From: Escherichia phage T4
DNA length: 64,000 bases
Direction: 5' to 3' (one strand)
Sequence record: NC_000866.4
Under the pieces are notes generated by a model. That model saw only the letters and a list, made by a program, of their open reading frames with translations. It had not been told where the DNA came from and made no database searches. Made by a program: the position numbers and the translations under genes. Position 1 is the stretch's first letter. Every line of letters begins with the position of its first letter. Positions 1,302 through 40,530 of this stretch are shown one piece after another.

Positions 1302-2984
1302 TTAAACCATTACAGTAAATCGACCAACTTTCTTCATTTGAAGATGCTGACCATATTCTTGCGGGTCATGGTCTTTATGCGAAATTATAAAAACGTTAGT
1401 GTTTTTCATTGAATTTATAATATTAGCTACACCTTTAATACCTTCGGCATCAAATGACCCATCAAACACTTCATCAAGAATTAATGTACTAATACTAACA
1501 CCAGATACGATAGAAGCAATATCACGCCAAGTAAATAAAAGAGCAATATCGATTCGTGCCTTTTCACCTTCACTAAATGAAGCATAACTAAAATCTTCAC
1601 GACCACGGGATTTAATTGTCTCATTAAATTCTTCATCTAATGTAAACACATAATCCGCTTCCATTATTTTAAGATAATGGTTAATCTGCTTATTAAATAA
1701 TGGAATGTACTTTTTAATAATAGCACCTTTAATACCAGAATCTTTGAGCATATCAGTCAAAATTCCTCGGTGGTATTTTTCCATTACTAAATTAGTTTTT
1801 GTCTTAACAATTTTATCAAGTTCTTCTTGAAGCAGTGCTATTTCATCAGCATGGTCAATAAACTCAGAAGATGCTTTTTCTATAGCCGCTTTAACTTTTT
1901 TAGCTTTATCTACTGCTGCGATCAGAGATTGCTTTTTATTGCGAATATCATTTGCCAACGACTGCTGGGTTTTAATATTATCTCGGTATTCATCAACAAG
2001 AACTTTTAAATTATCACGATGTGTTGAAAGCTGTTCAAACGAATGTGTGCATTCAGAAACTTTATCTTTAATTTTAGAAACAACTTTATCACCGGAACTC
2101 AATTGTGACAAACAGGTTGGACATAATCCACCTTCGTGATACATATTAATGACTTTATTATACGAGTCAATTTTTGATTTAATTAAAAATGCTTCTTGAC
2201 CGATTTTATTAAATGCATCAGTCGGGTCTTCGTCCAAAACAATATTAACTAATCTTTCGTTAGCTTCTTCTATTTCCGATTTTAGCGTTCTAGCTTCTTT
2301 TGCCAAATCATCATACATATTTTGTAGACGAGTAAGGTTGTCACCCGTTAATTTTTTCTGGCGTTCAACATTATCATTATATATTTTAATTTGTTGGATA
2401 ATACTATCTTTTTTAACATCAAGCACTTGGTTCTGCGAATTTAATTCACGTATTAGTGCTTTATTAAGCTTATCCATTTCAGCTAATGTTCCTACCTCAA
2501 GCAGGTCTTCCACAAGCTTTCTTCGCGCAGGGGTCGACAAACCCATGAAAGGGGTATACCCTGCTGTACCAAGGACAACAATCTGCTTGAAACTGGCATA
2601 TGACATTCCGATAAGCTGTTCAAATTCTGCTTGGAAATCTTTACTGCTGGCAGATTCATTAAGACGTGTACCGTTAACGGTGATTTCGAAAACGTTTGGT
2701 TTTTGTCCTCTTTTGATATAGTACTTTTTCTCATCATATTCCATCCACAGTTCAACTAAAAGTTCTTTCTTATTTGTGCTGTTTATTAATTGACCTTTCT
2801 TTACATCGCGAAATGGCTTACCAAAAAGCCCAAATGTGATGGCTTCTAGCATAGTAGACTTACCACCGCCATTTCGTCCAGTAATAAGAGTTTTTTGAAC
2901 CTTATCTAATTGAATGTCAATCCCATTTTGACCAACTGACATTATATTTTTATATTTTACTCTATTAAGTTTAAAATTCTTCAC
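1302..2984 (-). CDS. 46: gp46 recombination nuclease subunit (Rad50/SbcC-like ATPase)
   Basis: 560 aa; Walker A GRNGGGKST; long coiled-coil; zinc hook CPTC; T4 gp46 length. Confidence 0.95.
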   Translation of the reverse strand: MKNFKLNRVKYKNIMSVGQNGIDIQLDKVQKTLITGRNGGGKSTMLEAITFGLFGKPFRDVKKGQLINSTNKKELLVELWMEYDEKKYYIKRGQKPNVFEITVNGTRLNESASSKDFQAEFEQLIGMSYASFKQIVVLGTAGYTPFMGLSTPARRKLVEDLLEVGTLAEMDKLNKALIRELNSQNQVLDVKKDSIIQQIKIYNDNVERQKKLTGDNLTRLQNMYDDLAKEARTLKSEIEEANERLVNIVLDEDPTDAFNKIGQEAFLIKSKIDSYNKVINMYHEGGLCPTCLSQLSSGDKVVSKIKDKVSECTHSFEQLSTHRDNLKVLVDEYRDNIKTQQSLANDIRNKKQSLIAAVDKAKKVKAAIEKASSEFIDHADEIALLQEELDKIVKTKTNLVMEKYHRGILTDMLKDSGIKGAIIKKYIPLFNKQINHYLKIMEADYVFTLDEEFNETIKSRGREDFSYASFSEGEKARIDIALLFTWRDIASIVSGVSISTLILDEVFDGSFDAEGIKGVANIINSMKNTNVFIISHKDHDPQEYGQHLQMKKVGRFTVMV

Positions 2985-3196
2985 AAAAGATTCCTTTTAA
3001 TGTATCTTTTAGACCATTCTATCATATCATCATAATCTAAAAAGTATTCATCAAATTCAGCCATGCAAACAACGCCTTGTGCTGTTTTTGATGTGATATA
3101 AATTATTCCAACATATCTAGAATCTTCTTCGGTATAATCAATATTTGCTATGAATTCATCATTAATGTCAAATGTCGAAAACTTCACAGTATGCAT
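2981..3196 (-). CDS. hypothetical protein (46.1-like)
   Basis: ORF track 2981..3244; start trimmed to ATG at 3194-3196 to limit overlap with next gene. Confidence 0.45.
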   Translation of the reverse strand: MHTVKFSTFDINDEFIANIDYTEEDSRYVGIIYITSKTAQGVVCMAEFDEYFLDYDDMIEWSKRYIKRNLL

Positions 3197-3431
3197 CCTT
3201 AATACAAGATACAGCCATATCTCGTAATGATTTAGGTGTGTCATTATCTAAAATGTTGAAGTTAAAAGATACAGCCCAGTCAGTGCAGACAGTAACCTTT
3301 TTAATACAATTATCTTCAACCTCTAACGGTTCAAACCAGTATTCAATAATTTCTTTATGACCAATATCATCTTTTACTTCACATTTAAAATGCTGACTCA
3401 TCATAACATTTTTAAATTCATCAAAAGTCAT
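3168..3431 (-). CDS. hypothetical protein (46.2-like)
   Basis: 87 aa ORF between 46 and 47. Confidence 0.5.
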   Translation of the reverse strand: MTFDEFKNVMMSQHFKCEVKDDIGHKEIIEYWFEPLEVEDNCIKKVTVCTDWAVSFNFNILDNDTPKSLRDMAVSCIKDAYCEVFDI

Positions 3432-4447
3432 TGTGTTGCCTCTACATATAGCTGATTTGCATATTGAATAAGTGCTTCACGGTCAGAATCAGTGATGTCT
3501 GGAATTGCATTAATATACTCTTCCATTAATGTCTGAAGCGATTGAACTTCAACTTCTTCACTGTCATCTGACTCGACAGAGTTATCAATCTTTGACACAA
3601 CTCGTAATGAATGCACAACTTTTTCTAGTTCAGATTCGAACTTCGTCAGATTTTTGTCTACTTCAGTTACTATAACACGTACTGATAGATTTGTAAAATC
3701 TTTATAGTCAATTTTTCCTTTAAATGGATAATGAATTCTACGATGCCAGGTAGTATTGTTTGGAATAAATTCCGTTCGTTCTGTTTCTGTATCAAACATC
3801 CAGAACCCACGAGGGTCATTCTCGTCACCTGCGGTTAGTGTCCATGGTGTCCCAATATATCTGACGTTTGCAGCCTCAGAAATAGTATGGAAGTGACCAG
3901 ACCACACTTCTTTATAAGTCTTAAGGAAATCGGGTTCAAGACCATGAGATTTCATTCCTTTATAAAAATAAAATCCATTCAGTTCCCAGTGACCAACACA
4001 AAAAGAAGCAGATGAAGTTTTGATATGCTCAAGAATTTCACCAGTATTTTCTTCGCACATCCAAGGAATCAAATCAATCAAACACCCGTCAAAATCTACT
4101 GTAGTAGGCTTATCATACACTTTAACATTAGGATATTTAGCCAAAAGCTCAGTAGAAGCATTTGGATGCATTACATTTTTATAGTGGAGATCGTGATTTC
4201 CTACAATAGTGTGTAATGTAATTCCAGCATCATCAAGCGTTTGAACTATTTCACGGGCAAACTCCATAGTTTTATGTGTGATCGCTTTTCGCACATCAAA
4301 AATATCACCGTATTGAATCCAGGTAGTAATTCCATTTTTCTTAGAATATTCTATCGCTTGCTTAATTCCATCAATTTGAATACCGCGAATCCACTCATCA
4401 TCAGCTTTAACGCCTAAATGCCAATCACCTAAATTTAAAATTTTCAT
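3428..4447 (-). CDS. 47: gp47 recombination nuclease subunit (Mre11/SbcD-like phosphoesterase)
   Basis: 339 aa; calcineurin-like motifs GDWHLG, GNHD, GHFH; adjacent to 46. Confidence 0.95.
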   Translation of the reverse strand: MKILNLGDWHLGVKADDEWIRGIQIDGIKQAIEYSKKNGITTWIQYGDIFDVRKAITHKTMEFAREIVQTLDDAGITLHTIVGNHDLHYKNVMHPNASTELLAKYPNVKVYDKPTTVDFDGCLIDLIPWMCEENTGEILEHIKTSSASFCVGHWELNGFYFYKGMKSHGLEPDFLKTYKEVWSGHFHTISEAANVRYIGTPWTLTAGDENDPRGFWMFDTETERTEFIPNNTTWHRRIHYPFKGKIDYKDFTNLSVRVIVTEVDKNLTKFESELEKVVHSLRVVSKIDNSVESDDSEEVEVQSLQTLMEEYINAIPDITDSDREALIQYANQLYVEATQ

Positions 4448-10328: not shown

Positions 10329-10445
10329 TTACATTTACCTTTAATTGATTAACCAAGCATTGATAAGCACTAAACTATACTGCGAATAAAATTCTGGACC
10401 AAAATGAAAATCATATCATTTATAGTATCCATAATGTAATTCAAT

Positions 10446-10916
10446 TTAATCATGTTTCCACACCCCATCGGTATTTGACCAAAGTCGCTGATTATCTGAT
10501 CCTCGCCACAGCTTTTTGGTCGGAAGATTTTTCTCATACTTCCCATCAATAATAACATCAACATATTTAAGCATTTCTAGTTGTTTAATATCTTCAAACT
10601 TATATCCTGTCCACAACCAGATATCTTTCTCCGGAAATCTTGCTTTAACCCAAGAAACTAAATTTGAAATCTCTTCTCGGTTCTGTGGATAAAGTGGGTC
10701 ACCGCCGGTTAAGGTAAGGCCTTGGATATACGATTTGCTTAAATGGGACGCAAGTTCTTTAACGGTATTCATAGTGAATAACTGTCCGTTACGAGCATTC
10801 CAAGTACTACGATTATAACAACCTTCGCATTTATGCAAACATCCAGTGACGAAGAGAACGACCCTACATCCAGGGCCGTTAACGAAATCGCATGGATAAA
10901 TTCTATCATAATTCAT
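10446..10916 (-). CDS. nrdG: anaerobic ribonucleotide reductase activating protein NrdG (radical SAM)
   Basis: Start trimmed to MNYDRIYPCDF; radical-SAM Cys cluster CLHKCEGCYN; 156 aa. Confidence 0.9.
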   Translation of the reverse strand: MNYDRIYPCDFVNGPGCRVVLFVTGCLHKCEGCYNRSTWNARNGQLFTMNTVKELASHLSKSYIQGLTLTGGDPLYPQNREEISNLVSWVKARFPEKDIWLWTGYKFEDIKQLEMLKYVDVIIDGKYEKNLPTKKLWRGSDNQRLWSNTDGVWKHD

Positions 10917-11538
10917 CTTTATATTTCCAAGTATATCCCTTATGAATAGATTGAATTCCTTTGCAACATTTATAAACAGCAGAATGAAAAAATCCTGCAT
11001 TTCTTATTTCAGTTGCTCCAGTTAGTTCTATTGTATTTCCGTCTGGTGAATAGCCAATAACCGTTTTGGTGTTAAAGCGATTTCTAGAACTATTTTTGAT
11101 ATGCTCTTTATGATTAGTAGACAAAGTTCTTCCTGTTAGCCCATCAGATATCCTTTTTCCAAAATCATCAGGAAGAGTTACTTTAGACCTAGCTATGCTC
11201 ATTAGCTTCTTAGTTTTATCGCTTCTTTTTGCGCCACGCTGATTTTCAAATTTCTTAGCTTTTGCATACGCGTATTGTGAAGAAGTAACTTTTCTATGCT
11301 TACTATTACTCATTATCCAATATGCATCATACATCTTTCCACCATATATTTTAGCCAATAAATGGTGAGCAGTATAGTGGGCCTTATAAGTTAAAAATAC
11401 TAAGTTGTCTAAATCATCTGAACCACCCATACTTCTTGGAATTATATGATGAAGTTCATACCCGGCTTTAGTTTGACGGGGCTTAGATGGGTGTTCAGCA
11501 GAATTAACTAGATTTGAATAGATTCTGTCATAATTCAT
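10906..11538 (-). CDS. mobC: HNH homing endonuclease (MobC-like)
   Basis: 210 aa; HNH motif HHIIPRSMGGSDDLDNLVFLTYKAHYTAH; between nrdG and nrdD. Confidence 0.8.
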   Translation of the reverse strand: MNYDRIYSNLVNSAEHPSKPRQTKAGYELHHIIPRSMGGSDDLDNLVFLTYKAHYTAHHLLAKIYGGKMYDAYWIMSNSKHRKVTSSQYAYAKAKKFENQRGAKRSDKTKKLMSIARSKVTLPDDFGKRISDGLTGRTLSTNHKEHIKNSSRNRFNTKTVIGYSPDGNTIELTGATEIRNAGFFHSAVYKCCKGIQSIHKGYTWKYKDEL

Positions 11539-12809
11539 TGGTGCTTAACCCTATGCATGATTTCTTTATTTTTACCGAGATTAAATCCGCGTTCGTTCGG
11601 ATTTCCCAAATAACCACATGTTCTTCTTATGGTATTCATCTTTTTAGGATCAGTTTCTCCACAAATAGAACAAACAAATCCGTTTTCAGTAGGAGTCATT
11701 TCATGGGTACTTCCACATGTAAAACATTTATCTACTGGCATATTAACACCAAAATAATCTAAATGCTGTGCAGCATAATCCCACACGGCCTCAAGACCTT
11801 TTAAGTTATTTTTCATATCAGGAAGTTCAACATAAGAAATGTGACCACCTGTCGCAATGAAATGATATGGCGCTTCACGAGAAATCTTTTCAAACGGAGT
11901 AATATTTTCTTCTACTGAAACATGGAAACTGTTAGTGTACCAGCCTTTATCGGTAACATCTTTTACGCTTCCATATTTTTCTGTATCGAGTTTACAGAAG
12001 CGATAACACAGGTTTTCAGCAGGAGTCGAATATAAACTAAAAGCAAATCCGGTTCTTTCAGTCCACTGTTTAAGATGAGCATTCATTTTAGTTAAAATTT
12101 CTCGTCCAATATCACGACCGACAAGAATATTCAATTCGTGAATACCAATGTATCCTAAAGACACTGAACTTCTACCGTTTTTAAATAACTCAATTATGTC
12201 GTCATCAGGTTTAAGACGAACCCCGAATGCACCTTCTTGGTAAAGAATAGGAGCAACAGTAGCTTTAACTCCTTTTAAGGAACTAATTCTACACATCAAA
12301 GCTTCAAAACATAAATCCATTCGTTCATTAAATAGCTCAACAAATTTCTGTTCATTGAACTGTGTTCCAATATAAGAATCTAACGCGATGCGAGGAAGAT
12401 TCAGTGTTACAACACCAAGATTATTGCGTCCATCAAGAATTTCATTGCCAGTCGAATCTTTCCATACGCTCAAGAAACTACGGCAACCCATCGGAGAAAC
12501 AGGAACAGATGAACCAGTGATAGCTTTATTGTTCTTAGCTGAAATAATATCAGGATACATCCTTTTGCTTGCGCACTCTAGAGCAAGCTGTTTAATATCA
12601 TAGTTCGGATCGTCTTTATAAAGATTAACACCTTCTTCAACGAACATAACAAGCTTAGGGAAAATAGGAGTTATCCCATCACGACCAAGACCTTTAATAC
12701 GATTTTTCAGAATTGCTTTCTGAATCATTCGTTCAGTCCAGTCAGTTCCCGTACCAAATGTAATTGTTACAAAAGGAGTCTGTCCGTTTGAACTGAATAA
12801 CGTGTTCAC
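11535..12809 (-). CDS. nrdD: anaerobic ribonucleotide reductase NrdD, exon 2 (C-terminal part)
   Basis: 424 aa ORF ending with glycyl-radical motif RRTCGYLG and Cys cluster CFTCG...CSICG; upstream boundary is the 3-prime splice site, not a start codon. Confidence 0.85.
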   Translation of the reverse strand: MNTLFSSNGQTPFVTITFGTGTDWTERMIQKAILKNRIKGLGRDGITPIFPKLVMFVEEGVNLYKDDPNYDIKQLALECASKRMYPDIISAKNNKAITGSSVPVSPMGCRSFLSVWKDSTGNEILDGRNNLGVVTLNLPRIALDSYIGTQFNEQKFVELFNERMDLCFEALMCRISSLKGVKATVAPILYQEGAFGVRLKPDDDIIELFKNGRSSVSLGYIGIHELNILVGRDIGREILTKMNAHLKQWTERTGFAFSLYSTPAENLCYRFCKLDTEKYGSVKDVTDKGWYTNSFHVSVEENITPFEKISREAPYHFIATGGHISYVELPDMKNNLKGLEAVWDYAAQHLDYFGVNMPVDKCFTCGSTHEMTPTENGFVCSICGETDPKKMNTIRRTCGYLGNPNERGFNLGKNKEIMHRVKHQ

Positions 12810-13845
12810 TTCATCAATGTGTTCAGTAGAGTTCGCTACTTCTCTACCCGTTTATATGAAACAATGTAATTTGGATAATTGTCATCTAAACACAAATCTT
12901 TAATACGACTTGGGTGGAGTTTTAAATCTTTAGCAGCATCCACAAATGATTTATAGATATTGTCATTTATTTTAACATATTCTGGGACGGGATGAATTGT
13001 TATTTTTATATCTATAACATTTGGATGATTACTAACCTGTTCTTCAGAGCATTTAAGAAATTTTGCAGCTGATTTAAAACTTCTAAATTTATTTCCGGAT
13101 TTTAAAGCTATAGAAACAGTCTTTTTAGCCGTTCTACTACCAATATTATTTTTAACATGAGCTTCACTTCTACTATTATTTTTATAATGCTCAATCAATT
13201 TCTCTCGTATCTTATCTTTATGTTTTAAAGATAAGATTTTACCTTTATGGGCATTACTAAGTTTTTGCTTATGTTCTTCTGAATCCGGATATTTGTTAAA
13301 TTTATATCCACCTATAGATTTATTAAGAATAAATTCGTTATTAAAATATTTCCTAATAAGCATTTCTTCATGTTTAAGGGCCGATTCATAAGAATCAAAA
13401 ACTTGAAGAATTATCCACTTAGCTTTATAATCTTTAAGCTTTTCTTTAACAAGCTTAGATGACGAATTGTATTCTTTCCAATTTGTATCTTTACCATATA
13501 TAGTTTTGAATTTTTTAAAACCTATATAAAAAGACTTATCAGGAAATCTTACCATATAGGTAAATGCTACAGAATTGGCAATTTTTAAGCTTTTTCTTAA
13601 TTTCCATTTCATCGTTTCACCTCGTATTCATATTTATACGAGGATAAACAGCTGCATGTCACCATGCAGTTCAGACTATATCTTCAACTCTTAGAGTTGT
13701 CTGCCGTTTCGGGTCGCTTGACCCTACTCCCTTACATTCATCAGGGATAGTCGTTGGGCATTTACAGCTACTGCTGATTTAGCAACGGATTGTCTCAGTG
13801 AGAGTTTCCCGTTTTAGGCAGATTTTACATGAGCTTGACTTACGT
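12810..13845 (-). mobile_element. group I self-splicing intron in nrdD carrying I-TevII (boundaries approximate)
   Basis: Non-coding structured GC-rich core 13613-13845 recalled as the T4 nrdD (sunY) intron; embedded GIY-YIG ORF; NrdD reading frame interrupted; exon totals 181+424 match the ~605 aa NrdD. Confidence 0.8.
12836..13612 (-). CDS. I-TevII: intron-encoded GIY-YIG homing endonuclease I-TevII
   Basis: 258 aa ORF MKWKLRKSLKIANSVAFTYMVRFPDKSFYIGFKKFKTIYG... inside the nrdD intron. Confidence 0.9.
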   Translation of the reverse strand: MKWKLRKSLKIANSVAFTYMVRFPDKSFYIGFKKFKTIYGKDTNWKEYNSSSKLVKEKLKDYKAKWIILQVFDSYESALKHEEMLIRKYFNNEFILNKSIGGYKFNKYPDSEEHKQKLSNAHKGKILSLKHKDKIREKLIEHYKNNSRSEAHVKNNIGSRTAKKTVSIALKSGNKFRSFKSAAKFLKCSEEQVSNHPNVIDIKITIHPVPEYVKINDNIYKSFVDAAKDLKLHPSRIKDLCLDDNYPNYIVSYKRVEK

Positions 13846-14385
13846 TAACTCATAAGCTTGGAATGCATCGTATACGTCTTTTTCTGTTTTAGATTGAGCA
13901 TAATTCAACGCATCAGCGATTTGCCATTTTTCTGCATCCTCAATATGTTTTGCATAGGTGCGTTTAACATAAGGAGAAAGTACTTTATCTACATTCGCAA
14001 AAGTCGTTCCGCCGTATTGGTGAGAAGCAACTTGCGCAGTAATTTGTGCCATAATTGCAGTAGCAACTCCAATTGATTTAGGAGTTTCAATCTGCGCATT
14101 ACCAAGCTTAAATCCGTTTTCAAGCATTCCTTTTAAATCTACTAAACAGCAATTAGTAAATGGAAGAGCAGGGGAATAATCAATATCATGCACGTGAATA
14201 ATTCCGCTTTCATGCGCTTTCATAATAAAAGACGGGACCATATTTTTGGCAATGTGTTTAGACACAATACCAGCCATAAGGTCCCGTTGAGTTGGAAAAA
14301 CACGAGAATCTTTATTAGCATTCTCGTTTAAAAGGTCTTTATTAGTTTTATGAATTAATCCTTCAATTTCTTTTTCAATTGTCAT
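13846..14385 (-). CDS. nrdD: anaerobic ribonucleotide reductase NrdD, exon 1 (N-terminal part)
   Basis: ORF MTIEKEIEGLIHKTNKDLLN... of ~180 aa; ORF-track stop at 13840-13842 lies inside the intron; exact splice site not determined. Confidence 0.85.
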
Positions 14386-14855
14386 TTTAAACTCTTTCTA
14401 AGCTGCTTCTTGAATGAAGCTATTAATTGTGTTTTGGTGTCAGATTCATTATATTCAAATCCTCTTTGAAGCATCTCGGCCATCATTTCCTCTTTTCCTA
14501 AACGAGAAAATTCCTTTGATTTATCTCCAACAAAGTTAGGGTGAATATTATTTTGGGTGTAATCGGATTTTAAATAAGTAAGTAAATTTTCTAACCATTC
14601 AAGATAATCAACACCTTGTCCCTTTAAGCCAGAACGATTAAATTTATGCTTCATTTGACCTTCTGCAGCATTGCATAGATTACAAAGCAATCCACGCACC
14701 TTTCCTGCTTTTGGTCCATTTAATTCATGGTCATGGTCGAGGTGATTAGCTTGAACATCAGGATTTAGTTCTCGTTGGCAAATTAAGCATTTACCGTTTT
14801 GTGCATCATAAAATTTCTGTTTTTCTTCTTTGTATAATTTGCCAGTCAATAACAT
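14382..14855 (-). CDS. 49: gp49 endonuclease VII (Holliday junction resolvase)
   Basis: 157 aa MLLTGKLYKEEKQKFYDAQNGKCLICQREL...; matches T4 endo VII. Confidence 0.95.
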   Translation of the reverse strand: MLLTGKLYKEEKQKFYDAQNGKCLICQRELNPDVQANHLDHDHELNGPKAGKVRGLLCNLCNAAEGQMKHKFNRSGLKGQGVDYLEWLENLLTYLKSDYTQNNIHPNFVGDKSKEFSRLGKEEMMAEMLQRGFEYNESDTKTQLIASFKKQLRKSLK

Positions 14856-14896
14856 AATAAACCCTTACCTTAAATAGATAAGGGTATTTATTATTT

Positions 14897-15382
14897 TCAA
14901 GTATTGTAAAACATTTGATGCAATCGCTTATATTGCTGAATCATTCGGTCAGAAAAAGAAATTTGAGTTTCAAGCCATTCAATGTACTCTGCGGCAGCTT
15001 GCATTAAATTTCCTTCATAGCCATCGTTATTTTCTTGTGCAGCTAATTTAGCTAATGCGTATGAAATACGTTCACCTTGAAAATCGGCTTTAGGCTTCTG
15101 AACAACTTGATTAGTTCGCTCTACAACTTCTTCAATTTCGCCATTTTCTACTGATTCAGTATTCCACAAACACCAATACGTAATTGGCTTATCGTAGATG
15201 TTAATAATCTTTCCATCAGAAAGTTCAATTTCAATAATTCCAGTGTCAGGCTCTATATCATCTTCACATTCTTTTACAAGTTCACGAACTTTAAAGACAG
15301 TACCTGCACTAAGTTCCGGCCAGTAATTACACAGCCCTGTATCAGCACGATTAATTCTAAACCATTTATCTACTGTAATCAT
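14897..15382 (-). CDS. pin: PinA-like inhibitor of host Lon protease
   Basis: Start trimmed to MITVDKWF (161 aa); position after gene 49. Confidence 0.7.
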   Translation of the reverse strand: MITVDKWFRINRADTGLCNYWPELSAGTVFKVRELVKECEDDIEPDTGIIEIELSDGKIINIYDKPITYWCLWNTESVENGEIEEVVERTNQVVQKPKADFQGERISYALAKLAAQENNDGYEGNLMQAAAEYIEWLETQISFSDRMIQQYKRLHQMFYNT

Positions 15383-15505
15383 GTCCCATCTCCATATCAA
15401 TTAAGTCATTTATCGTTGGTTCATTATACACCGTTTCTTCATCAGTGTAAACCGGTTCTTCCGGCTCTGGCTCTACAGTTTCCCATCTAGCCGCCCACCA
15501 AGGTT

Positions 15506-38864: not shown

Positions 38865-39180
38865 GCGGCAACCTTGTCGGGGTTCCACCTGCCAAGGCAA
38901 GTGTTTGTACGAAACGCCGGGATTCGAACCCGGTTATTAAGTAGTTGACGCTACTCAATATTTTTAAAAGGCCATATCTCAACCATATCCGAACGTTCCG
39001 TCAAAAACGCTACTCGGCTTACGGCAAAGATATTTCCTCGAATCGATAATTTGGTGCGCCGTTTCTGCTGTGATGTAAGAGGGCATCAATAAACGCAAAG
39101 ATTATTAACGCAATTCCTTACTCAGGGAACCATCAGTCCGACGACTTACCGGTAGCGACCCGGTTTCTCATTTGGTATCC
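38865..39180 (-). ncRNA. stable small RNAs of the tRNA cluster (T4 species 1 / species 2-like), boundaries approximate
   Basis: No ORF; tRNA-like T-arm ccgggttcgaatcccgg and an encoded ...gcgcacca 3-prime end; lies between tRNA-Arg and the cluster terminator, as T4 rnaC/rnaD. Confidence 0.5.
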
Positions 39181-39182
39181 CG

Positions 39183-39257
39183 CCCTGGGATCGAACCAGG
39201 ACCGCAAACTTAGAAGGATCGTATGCTATCCATTACACCAGCGGGACGTAATTTAAA
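39183..39257 (-). tRNA. tRNA-Arg: tRNA-Arg (anticodon UCU)
   Basis: Minus-strand gtcccgctggtgtaatggatagcatacgatccttctaagtttgcggtcctggttcgatcccagggcgggatacca; cloverleaf, encoded CCA. Confidence 0.85.
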
Positions 39258-39918
39258 ATTTCATTTTTCGACCTTTAAACCATCCTTCTGGAATTGGGTC
39301 AGTTTTCTTAATACGTTTAGAAACTTTTTCATCTAATGAATGAATCCACATCATACCGAATTGGGAATTCTTTTCACCTTTCTGGTGATTATTTTTGGCG
39401 TGAGATTCTTTCATTTTATTAATAGTTTCAGGAGTATGATGCTTATTTAGAAATCTGCTATTATTTAAAAATTTTTCCCTGTATTCAGGAGTTGACCACA
39501 AACGTTTAAATACATTTGAACCAATTTTACGATATTTTTCTTGAAGTAAAATATCATTTTCAAAACGTGACTTAAACGATTTAGCTCCTTTTAAGCTAGC
39601 ATCTTTCTTCTGGTTTAGCATTCCAGGAATATTTACATGATCCCATCCACCTTCACCGCCAAGTTTTAAATTATACACATCTGGTCTATTTAAAAACTCT
39701 TCTGTGACAATATTTTTCTCGGCTTCAAGCATAGATTCTTTATCGTCAAAATACTCTAATATTTCTTTAGAAAAATTTTCTATACCATATTTATCTTGGG
39801 CTCTTTTTAATAATTTACCAGAACCCATATATCCATCATCTAAATTTTCGGTAGAATGCACACCAATATAAATTTTATTATTAATTTTATTTGTTATTTT
39901 ATAAGTGTAATAGAACAT
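39253..39918 (-). CDS. segB: GIY-YIG homing endonuclease SegB
   Basis: 221 aa; YYTYKITNKINNKIYIGVHS...GYMGSG; embedded in the tRNA cluster as in T4. Confidence 0.85.
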   Translation of the reverse strand: MFYYTYKITNKINNKIYIGVHSTENLDDGYMGSGKLLKRAQDKYGIENFSKEILEYFDDKESMLEAEKNIVTEEFLNRPDVYNLKLGGEGGWDHVNIPGMLNQKKDASLKGAKSFKSRFENDILLQEKYRKIGSNVFKRLWSTPEYREKFLNNSRFLNKHHTPETINKMKESHAKNNHQKGEKNSQFGMMWIHSLDEKVSKRIKKTDPIPEGWFKGRKMKF

Positions 39919-39959
39919 AAATATCTCCTATTTCTAAGAGTATTTATGTTCTCAAAATA

Positions 39960-40033
39960 TGACCCAGACCAGATTTGAACTGGTAACCTTTCCCTTATGA
40001 GGGGACTGCTGCTAACCATTGAGCTACAGGGCC
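39960..40033 (-). tRNA. tRNA-Ile: tRNA-Ile (anticodon CAU type)
   Basis: Minus-strand ggccctgtagctcaatggttagcagcagtcccctcataaggg...ggttcaaatc...; anticodon loop ctcataa. Confidence 0.75.
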
Positions 40034-40034
40034 T

Positions 40035-40110
40035 TGGTGCTGATTGACGGAATCGAACCGCCGACATCCTCATTACAAGTGAGGTGCTCTACCTACTGAG
40101 CTAAATCAGC
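40035..40110 (-). tRNA. tRNA-Thr: tRNA-Thr (anticodon UGU)
   Basis: Minus-strand gctgatttagctcagtaggtagagcacctcacttgtaatgagg...ggttcgattcc...aatcagcacca. Confidence 0.85.
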
Positions 40111-40117
40111 AAAATTA

Positions 40118-40204
40118 CGGAGGCGATAGGATTTGAACCTATGAGTCGCCGGAGCGACTGCCGGTTTTCAAGACCGGTGCATTAAACCACTCTGCCACGC
40201 CTCC
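40118..40204 (-). tRNA. tRNA-Ser: tRNA-Ser (anticodon UGA), long variable arm
   Basis: Minus-strand ggaggcgtggcagagtggtttaatgcaccggtcttgaaaaccgg...ggttcaaatcctatcgcctcc. Confidence 0.85.
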
Positions 40205-40206
40205 AG

Positions 40207-40280
40207 TCTCCATACAAGGATTTGAACCTTGGACCTCCTGATCCCAAATCAGGCGCTCTACCAAACTGAGCTACACGGAG
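40207..40280 (-). tRNA. tRNA-Pro: tRNA-Pro (anticodon UGG)
   Basis: Minus-strand ctccgtgtagctcagtttggtagagcgcctgatttgggatcagg...ggttcaaatcc. Confidence 0.85.
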
Positions 40281-40290
40281 TAAATTAAAT

Positions 40291-40364
<74 letters not shown>

Positions 40365-40369
40365 AAATT

Positions 40370-40456
40370 TGGTGCGAGAAGTGGGACTCGAACCCACAAG
40401 GAAATCATTCCGCAGCATTTTAAGTGCTGTGCCTTTACCAATTTGACCATTCTCGC
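40370..40456 (-). tRNA. tRNA-Leu: tRNA-Leu (anticodon UAA), long variable arm
   Basis: Minus-strand gcgagaatggtcaaattggtaaaggcacagcacttaaaatgctg...gggttcgagtcccacttctcgcacca. Confidence 0.85.
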
Positions 40457-40457
40457 G

Positions 40458-40530
40458 CTGGGAATAAAGGACTCGAACCTTTGCATCTAGCAGTCAAAGT
40501 GCTATGCCTTACCAACTTGGCTAATTCCCA
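40458..40530 (-). tRNA. tRNA-Gln: tRNA-Gln (anticodon UUG)
   Basis: Minus-strand tgggaattagccaagttggtaaggcatagcactttgactgctag...ggttcgagtcctttattccca. Confidence 0.85.

Follow-up and report, generated by a model that had tools for sequence, protein, structure and literature searches.

A group I intron encoding I-TevII interrupts the nrdD gene in a 64-kb stretch of phage T4 DNA

The question raised by this locus is why nrdD, the gene for the large subunit of the anaerobic class III ribonucleotide reductase, appears in two pieces. In a stretch of 64,000 nucleotides (nt) from Escherichia phage T4 (sequence record NC_000866.4; the whole stretch is called the window below), the NrdD reading frame stops and resumes further on, with another open reading frame (ORF) between the halves. 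A prediction made from the sequence alone (the original prediction) had recognised here the known T4 nrdD (sunY) intron and its endonuclease. Our analysis leaves very little doubt that the element is the T4 nrdD gene (formerly sunY) carrying a 1033-nt self-splicing group I intron of IA2 type that encodes I-TevII. The intron is already known, and the finding is a correct and ordinary one.

The locus lies on the minus strand, which the original prediction had left unstated. It matched T4 record MT984581.1 base for base; there nrdD is annotated as a coding sequence (CDS) joined from two pieces, spanning exactly 11535-14385, and the internal ORF is labelled 'I-TevII homing endonuclease; DNA endonuclease encoded by group 1A intron in nrdD; GIY-YIG family'. 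A 3.1-kb stretch spanning the intron was 100% identical to Escherichia phage T4 OZ209023.1, and the intron region was identical also in a dozen further T4 records. Comparison with the T4 nrdD (sunY) intron and its I-TevII gene revealed no difference; they are the same element.

The original prediction had called for a covariance-model search to fix the intron boundaries. This search found the group I core but did not fix the boundaries on its own: at its 5' end the match to the Rfam model RF00028 reaches 36 nt into exon 1, and at its 3' end it goes no further than P9, which leaves about 840 nt to the 3' splice site. The boundaries were therefore taken from intronless alleles. The T4 locus (2851 nt) was aligned to the uninterrupted 1818-nt nrdD genes of T2 and of fFiEco06, and every split point was scored. 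Both comparisons gave the same single best split, at k=538, with an insert of 1033 nt (Table 1). At this point the intronless gene of T2 reads ...GCTTATGAAT|ATGAAGTAAATACTCTC..., and T4 reads ...GCUUAUGAGU|UAACGUAAG... at the 5' junction and ...GAACACAUUG|AUGAAGUG... at the 3' junction; the junction expected after splicing is ...GCUUAUGAGU|AUGAAGUGAAC. The last intron base, at the end of ...ACAUUG|AUGAAG, is a G.

These boundaries agree with the reading frames. The frame had been said to halt after about 180 codons, as it does: a 181-amino-acid (aa) ORF (14385..13840) overruns exon 1, which truly comprises 179 codons and 1 nt, by 7 nt into the intron, where it reaches a TAA at 13842..13840. 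It had also been said to resume about 1 kb downstream with the glycyl-radical half, and the restart at 12814 comes 1033 nt on, with a Gly_radical match at 9.4e-26; in the ORF list, exon 2 appears as a 424-aa ORF (12809..11535) that opens with the GTG at 12809. Excision of the intron gives an intact 605-aa ORF in which T and AT are joined to form the codon for Tyr180. The spliced protein matches T2 NrdD at 604 of 606 aligned positions, stop counted, and is identical to crystallised T4 NrdD (PDB 1H78, 1H79, 1H7A, 1H7B and 1HK8) except for the engineered G580A. An NRDD domain on both exons and a C-terminal Gly_radical domain with the radical residue Gly580 identify the product as a class III NrdD. 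Readings of the insert as an intein, a frameshift or a pseudogene were rejected: it is rich in stop codons in the NrdD frame, it holds a ribozyme core, and its excision restores the frame exactly.

Table 1. Features of the nrdD locus, in window coordinates; hyphen, minus strand.
Feature	Position	Strand	Basis or remark
nrdD, anaerobic class III ribonucleotide reductase large subunit, exons and intron	14385..11535	-	MT984581.1 CDS identity; Pfam NRDD on both halves
nrdD exon 1, 538 nt, codons 1-179 and first base of Tyr180	14385..13848	-	split point k=538; Pfam NRDD 1.5e-40
P1, exon UAUGAGU (-7..-1) 13854..13848 / guide GCUCAUG 13834..13828	13854..13828	-	minimum free energy fold
Group I intron (IA2-type), 1033 nt, starts UAACGUAAG, ends ...ACAUUG	13847..12815	-	insertion relative to intronless alleles; RF00028
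Catalytic core P3-P9	13822..13652	-	Rfam alignment; minimum free energy fold
P3	13822..13817 / 13705..13700	-	
P4	13813..13808 / 13789..13784	-	
P5	13804..13802 / 13796..13794	-	
P6	13783..13782 / 13759..13758	-	
P6a	13776..13773 / 13768..13765	-	
P7 pseudoknot, GACUA / UAGUC	13752..13748 / 13678..13674	-	added by hand
P7.1	13747..13743 / 13732..13728	-	3 of 5 pairs compensated on both sides
P7.2	13724..13720 / 13715..13711	-	3 of 5 pairs compensated on both sides
P8	13699..13694 / 13690..13685	-	
P9	13669..13663 / 13658..13652	-	
P9.1 hairpin, stem CCUCGUAU 13643..13636 / AUACGAGG 13627..13620	13649..13614	-	fold
T4 late-promoter motif TATAAATA	13638..13631	-	exact match; in P9.1 5' arm and loop; I-TevII ATG 18 nt downstream
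Operator-like block TATGAATACGAGGTGA, 16 nt	13632..13617	-	13/16 match to nrdD homing site TATGAATATGAAGTAA
I-TevII homing endonuclease ORF, 258 aa	13612..12836	-	ORF list; entirely 3' of core
3'-terminal hairpin (P9.2-like), GGUAGAG/CUCUACU	12848..12825	-	fold; 4 of 7 pairs compensated on both sides in JB75 type
Terminal guanosine (omega-G), 3' splice site	12815	-	intronless-allele comparison; sequence ends
nrdD exon 2, 1280 nt including stop, with glycyl-radical domain	12814..11535	-	Pfam NRDD 2.7e-122, Gly_radical 9.4e-26
Gly580 codon, glycyl-radical residue, motif RRTCGYLG	11615..11613	-	sole difference from PDB 1H78 (engineered G580A)

The insert contains a complete group I ribozyme core. 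RF00028 matched 13883..13652 (minus strand; full model, positions 1-253) with 105.3 bits (E 2.8e-26), where the gathering score is 50; the window contains no other group I intron match. The minimum free energy (MFE) fold of 13860..13613 had a free energy of -79.4 kcal/mol (z = -5.6 relative to shuffled sequences) and contained P1, P3, P4, P5, P6/P6a, P7.1, P7.2, P8 and P9. It also contained a long-range exon AGCU/AGCU pairing after P9 and a small GAUA/UAGUC hairpin, which were dropped in favour of the P7 pseudoknot. The original prediction had placed a 'GC-rich structured core' at 13613-13845, within a few bases of the intron start at 13847 and of the ORF start. Its structure is borne out by both the model score and the fold; as to composition, the core (43% G+C) is GC-rich relative to the window (35%) and the intron ORF (27%), but not in absolute terms. 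In P1, which has a small GUAA-capped extension between its two strands, a U13848·G13834 wobble falls at the 5' splice site, immediately before the position set by the intronless alleles.

Support for this structure, which was derived from the T4 sequence, came from an alignment of only five related introns (T4, JB75, FL23, PD114 and PA02). Over 69 pairs in the five introns, 92% of cells were paired and 23 pairs had changed on both sides; none of 500 column shuffles reached any of these measures, and slid partners were paired in only 33-43% of cells. Covariation was seen in P3, P4, P6a, P7.1, P7.2 and P8, whereas P7 and P9 were invariant in the five introns and are therefore uninformative. The extra helices P7.1 and P7.2, which follow the 5' strand of P7 and precede the 3' strand of P3, are in keeping with subgroup IA. 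We also infer a 3-base-pair P10 between exon 2 positions +2 to +4 (UGA, 12813..12811) and intron UCA (13838..13836), both conserved in the two intron lineages described below. The hairpin at the 3' end of the intron holds the last codons of I-TevII and its stop codon (12838..12836).

A scan of 10400-15500 for sigma-70 promoters and terminators gave counts not above chance, and one candidate 'terminator' at 13669..13652 (minus strand), CUGCAUGGUGACAUGCAG then CUGUUUAUCC, was discarded as simply the P9 hairpin of the intron. A 1986 paper by Gott, Shub and Belfort is said to have dealt with autocatalytic GTP labelling. The nrdD/sunY intron is listed among the three group I introns of T4 (PMC2988022, PMC1865063).

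A 258-aa ORF had been predicted between the NrdD halves and was found there. Its assignment to the GIY-YIG family was supported by family-level and fold evidence, but not by Pfam at its own thresholds, and several results weigh against it. As a single sequence, I-TevII scored below the Pfam cut-offs for SegE_GIY-YIG (21.6 versus 25), NUMOD1 (22.5 versus 22.8) and NUMOD3 (18.8 versus 20.4), did not match Pfam PF01541, NCBIfam or any PDB sequence, and gave non-significant E-values when the whole model was compared using Foldseek. On the other side, SegE_GIY-YIG (E 2.8e-4) was the best match within the Pfam GIY-YIG clan, and phrog_314, 'homing endonuclease', was matched at 8e-29. A word-indexed search recovered only 3 clusters of relatives; an exhaustive HMMER search recovered 261. 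In an alignment of 75 sequences, Y29, G31, E82 and N97 were invariant and Y19 was conserved in at least 90%; among these homologues, 27 of the 75 matched SegE_GIY-YIG, 53 NUMOD3 and 6 PF01541. The top two PDB matches of the resulting profile, both marginal, were the I-TevI catalytic domain (1LN0, E 0.016), to which the conserved motif residues were aligned, and the I-TevI DNA-binding domain (E 0.034).

The fold of I-TevII was predicted with confidence (predicted local distance difference test, pLDDT, 93), and the model has the alpha/beta arrangement of a GIY-YIG domain. The protein consists of an N-terminal GIY-YIG domain (residues ~15-100), NUMOD3-like linker helices and C-terminal DNA-binding modules. 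The GIY-YIG assignment stands, and its basis is the fold and the catalytic residues rather than a curated domain threshold. In the literature I-TevII is an active GIY-YIG enzyme that targets nrdD and cleaves some distance away from the point of insertion (PMC2988022 Table 1, PMC1865063).

Could the gene instead be truly split, so that two NrdD polypeptides of about 181 and about 400-424 aa are made, without RNA splicing, from either side of a free-standing endonuclease gene? Annotation pipelines do list two NrdD CDSs and a 'homing endonuclease' (OZ209023.1; nrdD-A and nrdD-B in Yersinia phage PST), and nrdA of phage Aeh1, split by mobE, is a precedent (PMC3653736). In T4 nrdD, however, a complete group I core with covariation lies exactly between the NrdD halves, the insertion is precise to the base and divides a codon (T|AT), intronless relatives exist at the same site, and the true junction offers exon 2 no ribosome-binding context. 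Moreover, the crystallised T4 NrdD (PDB 1H78) is a single chain of 605 residues that reads AYEYEVN across the junction. We consider a split gene extremely improbable. A decayed relic, in which the ribozyme or the endonuclease is inactive and the element is immobile or impaired in splicing, has a parallel in the T4 nrdB intron, whose endonuclease (a truncated I-TevIII) is defunct (PMC1865063), and would be in keeping with the scores of I-TevII under the Pfam thresholds. Against this, the I-TevII ORF is full length, with its invariant catalytic residues intact and a fold at pLDDT 93, the core, at 105 bits, has kept every helix intact, and the literature has high-efficiency homing of the nrdD intron and an active I-TevII (PMC2988022, PMC1865063); decay is hardly credible. 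The 100% identity to T4, the covariance-model match, the unique insertion, the splice-site features, the covariation and the PDB 1H78 protein all bear out the known T4 nrdD (sunY) intron arrangement that had been proposed.

Expression of I-TevII from this intron is likely to be controlled by the sequence just upstream of its start codon. The P9.1 hairpin (free energy -15.3 kcal/mol, z -5.9, none of 200 shuffles as good) sequesters the Shine-Dalgarno sequence of I-TevII, GAGG (13623..13620), which lies 7 nt before the ATG, and the diverged JB75-type intron described below has retained a counterpart of it. The late-promoter motif TATAAATA is conserved in that intron as well. A transcript begun at this promoter is predicted to have its 5' end in the 3' arm of P9.1 (about 13627..13620) and would thus be without the 5' arm, leaving the ribosome-binding site exposed. 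Such a hairpin mechanism has been described for I-TevI, for I-TevII and for I-TevIII (PMC2988022), and I-TevII is reported to be under the control of both a late promoter and a ribosome-binding-site hairpin (PMC2988022, PMC1865063). Counting against the promoter, the motif is not enriched in the window (11 matches observed, 11.25 expected); since this count is no higher than chance, promoter function rests on position and the literature.

The block TATGAATACGAGGTGA shares bases with the late promoter, with the 3' arm of P9.1 and with the Shine-Dalgarno sequence, and resembles the nrdD homing site (Table 1). It is 100% conserved from the T4-type to the JB75 intron and altered at one base in CE1, and its flanks diverge. 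A point against a role for the block is that its match to the homing site is only modestly above chance, 5 of 300 shuffles being as good. According to PMC2988022, autorepression by I-TevII is a proposal only. By analogy with I-TevI, for which autorepression has been shown, TATGAATACGAGGTGA could be a putative operator through which I-TevII represses itself, a suggestion we offer tentatively and regard as somewhat doubtful. The JB75-type endonuclease (56% identical) shares both insertion site and block with I-TevII, so that a common operator and homing site could be tested across lineages.

Taking catalysis, cleavage and regulation from the literature or by inference, we propose the following scheme. 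In the pre-mRNA, the seven bases at the 3' end of exon 1 would pair with the internal guide to form P1, with the U·G wobble at the splice site, and the P3-P9 core would fold round the guanosine-binding P7. An external guanosine would then attack after U13848, and the released exon 1 would attack after the terminal G at 12815; joining of the exons would make Tyr180 from T|AT and so yield the 605-aa glycyl-radical reductase NrdD. On long (early or middle) transcripts the ribosome-binding site of I-TevII would be locked in P9.1, and on transcripts begun at the late promoter within P9.1 it would be free. I-TevII would cut the intronless nrdD of co-infecting relatives close to the insertion site, and double-strand-break repair would copy the intron and flanking exon sequence into the cut alleles (homing). 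Bell-Pedersen et al. (1990) reportedly placed the cut about 13-15 nt downstream of the insertion site, with 2-nt 3' overhangs.

The distribution of the intron is that of a mobile element. Altogether, 864 phage records matched the locus, most of them covering the exons only (63% of the query), and the T4-type intron was present in just 23 of these; most relatives are intronless at the site. The intron is thus present in some and absent from other close relatives at one identical site, which marks it as mobile. Homing of the nrdD intron has been reported to be of high efficiency (PMC2988022, PMC1865063). The exons of T4 and T2 differ at 44 positions, 9 of which fall within 40 nt of the junction (spliced positions 537-576), a cluster of the kind that would be expected from co-conversion. 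In exon 2, silent T4-T2 differences are concentrated in the first 40 nt (window 12777-12807). Exon position -2 (window 13849), which pairs with a guide C, is G in both intron lineages and A in T2 and fFiEco06. A strict link between intron and exon sequence is opposed by some intronless phages that agree with T4 exon 1 without a mismatch over its final 53 nt.

Among related introns, that of T4 td, with I-TevI, has a different host gene (thymidylate synthase). The td intron ORF is looped out inside the core; unlike it, the nrdD intron ORF (13612..12836) follows the complete core (13847..13652) in a 3' extension. I-TevII and I-TevI of the td intron have only marginal sequence similarity (profile E 0.016). 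The nrdB intron of T4 and RB3, with I-TevIII, is likewise a T4 group I intron in a ribonucleotide reductase gene with promoter and hairpin regulation (PMC2988022, PMC1865063); its endonuclease differs in belonging to the HNH family and is truncated and inactive in T4, so that the intron is immobile on its own (PMC1865063).

At precisely the T4 insertion point in nrdD (k=538), Escherichia phages JB75, CE1, FL23, IME537 and others carry an intron of a second, diverged lineage. This JB75-type intron (1045 nt; JB75 locus 2554-3598, outside the window) shares with the T4 type the P1 guide GCUCAUG, the order core, hairpin, ORF, 3' hairpin, and the terminal G. Its core, however, is only ~72% identical to the T4-type core, and its endonuclease, of 256 aa, is 56% identical to I-TevII. 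It was found in 44 phage records, compared with 23 for the T4 type; the records examined have two nrdD CDSs and a homing endonuclease annotated without an intron feature, and our search of the accessible literature library found no paper describing it. In JB75, CE1 and FL23 the intron was missed altogether by a multi-locus Rfam search at the gathering threshold with default filters; it scored 72 bits (threshold 50) in a focused search. The miss is a filter artefact, and routine scans can therefore overlook this intron. Nucleotides 30-71 of the JB75-type intron, a 42-nt P4-P5 segment, match the td introns of T4, RB55 and numerous other T-even phages at 100% identity, and the T4-type nrdD intron differs in this segment. 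The pattern resembles an exchange of core domains among introns that belong to different genes.

Related IA2-type cores also interrupt nrdD in phages of unrelated groups (nieznany, Vibrio phage F99 and PD114; Phapecoctavirus, Justusliebigvirus and a Vibrio phage), and the unequal lengths of exon 1 suggest that they do so at other positions. The F99 and nieznany introns each contain a 169-aa ORF (an HNH endonuclease and a hypothetical protein, respectively), and the PD114 intron has no ORF.

The genes around the intron, which run gene 49 (endonuclease VII), nrdD, mobC, nrdG, are all on the minus strand. mobC, a free-standing HNH endonuclease gene (Pfam HNH 3.2e-6) at 10906-11538 (minus strand), lies between nrdD and nrdG (10446-10916, minus strand); its 5' end overlaps the nrdD stop codon, and its final 11 nt run into the start of nrdG. 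T2 and fFiEco06 lack mobC, and in both of them nrdG comes directly after nrdD. MobC and NrdG both begin MNYDRIY, the first 11 nt of the two genes being identical, and insertion of mobC appears to have duplicated or captured the nrdG start. Elsewhere in the window, eight tRNA genes clustered at 39176-40530 (minus strand; Rfam tRNA matches of 49-75 bits) form the T4 tRNA region.

The value of the finding lies in correct annotation. The element is a classic of its field, a model ribozyme (sunY), a model homing system and one of the three group I introns of T4, and its splice sites now have exact positions in the window, 13848|13847 and 12815|12814. Automatic pipelines still call the locus as two NrdD genes and a 'homing endonuclease', and they do so too in the 44 phage records with the sister intron.

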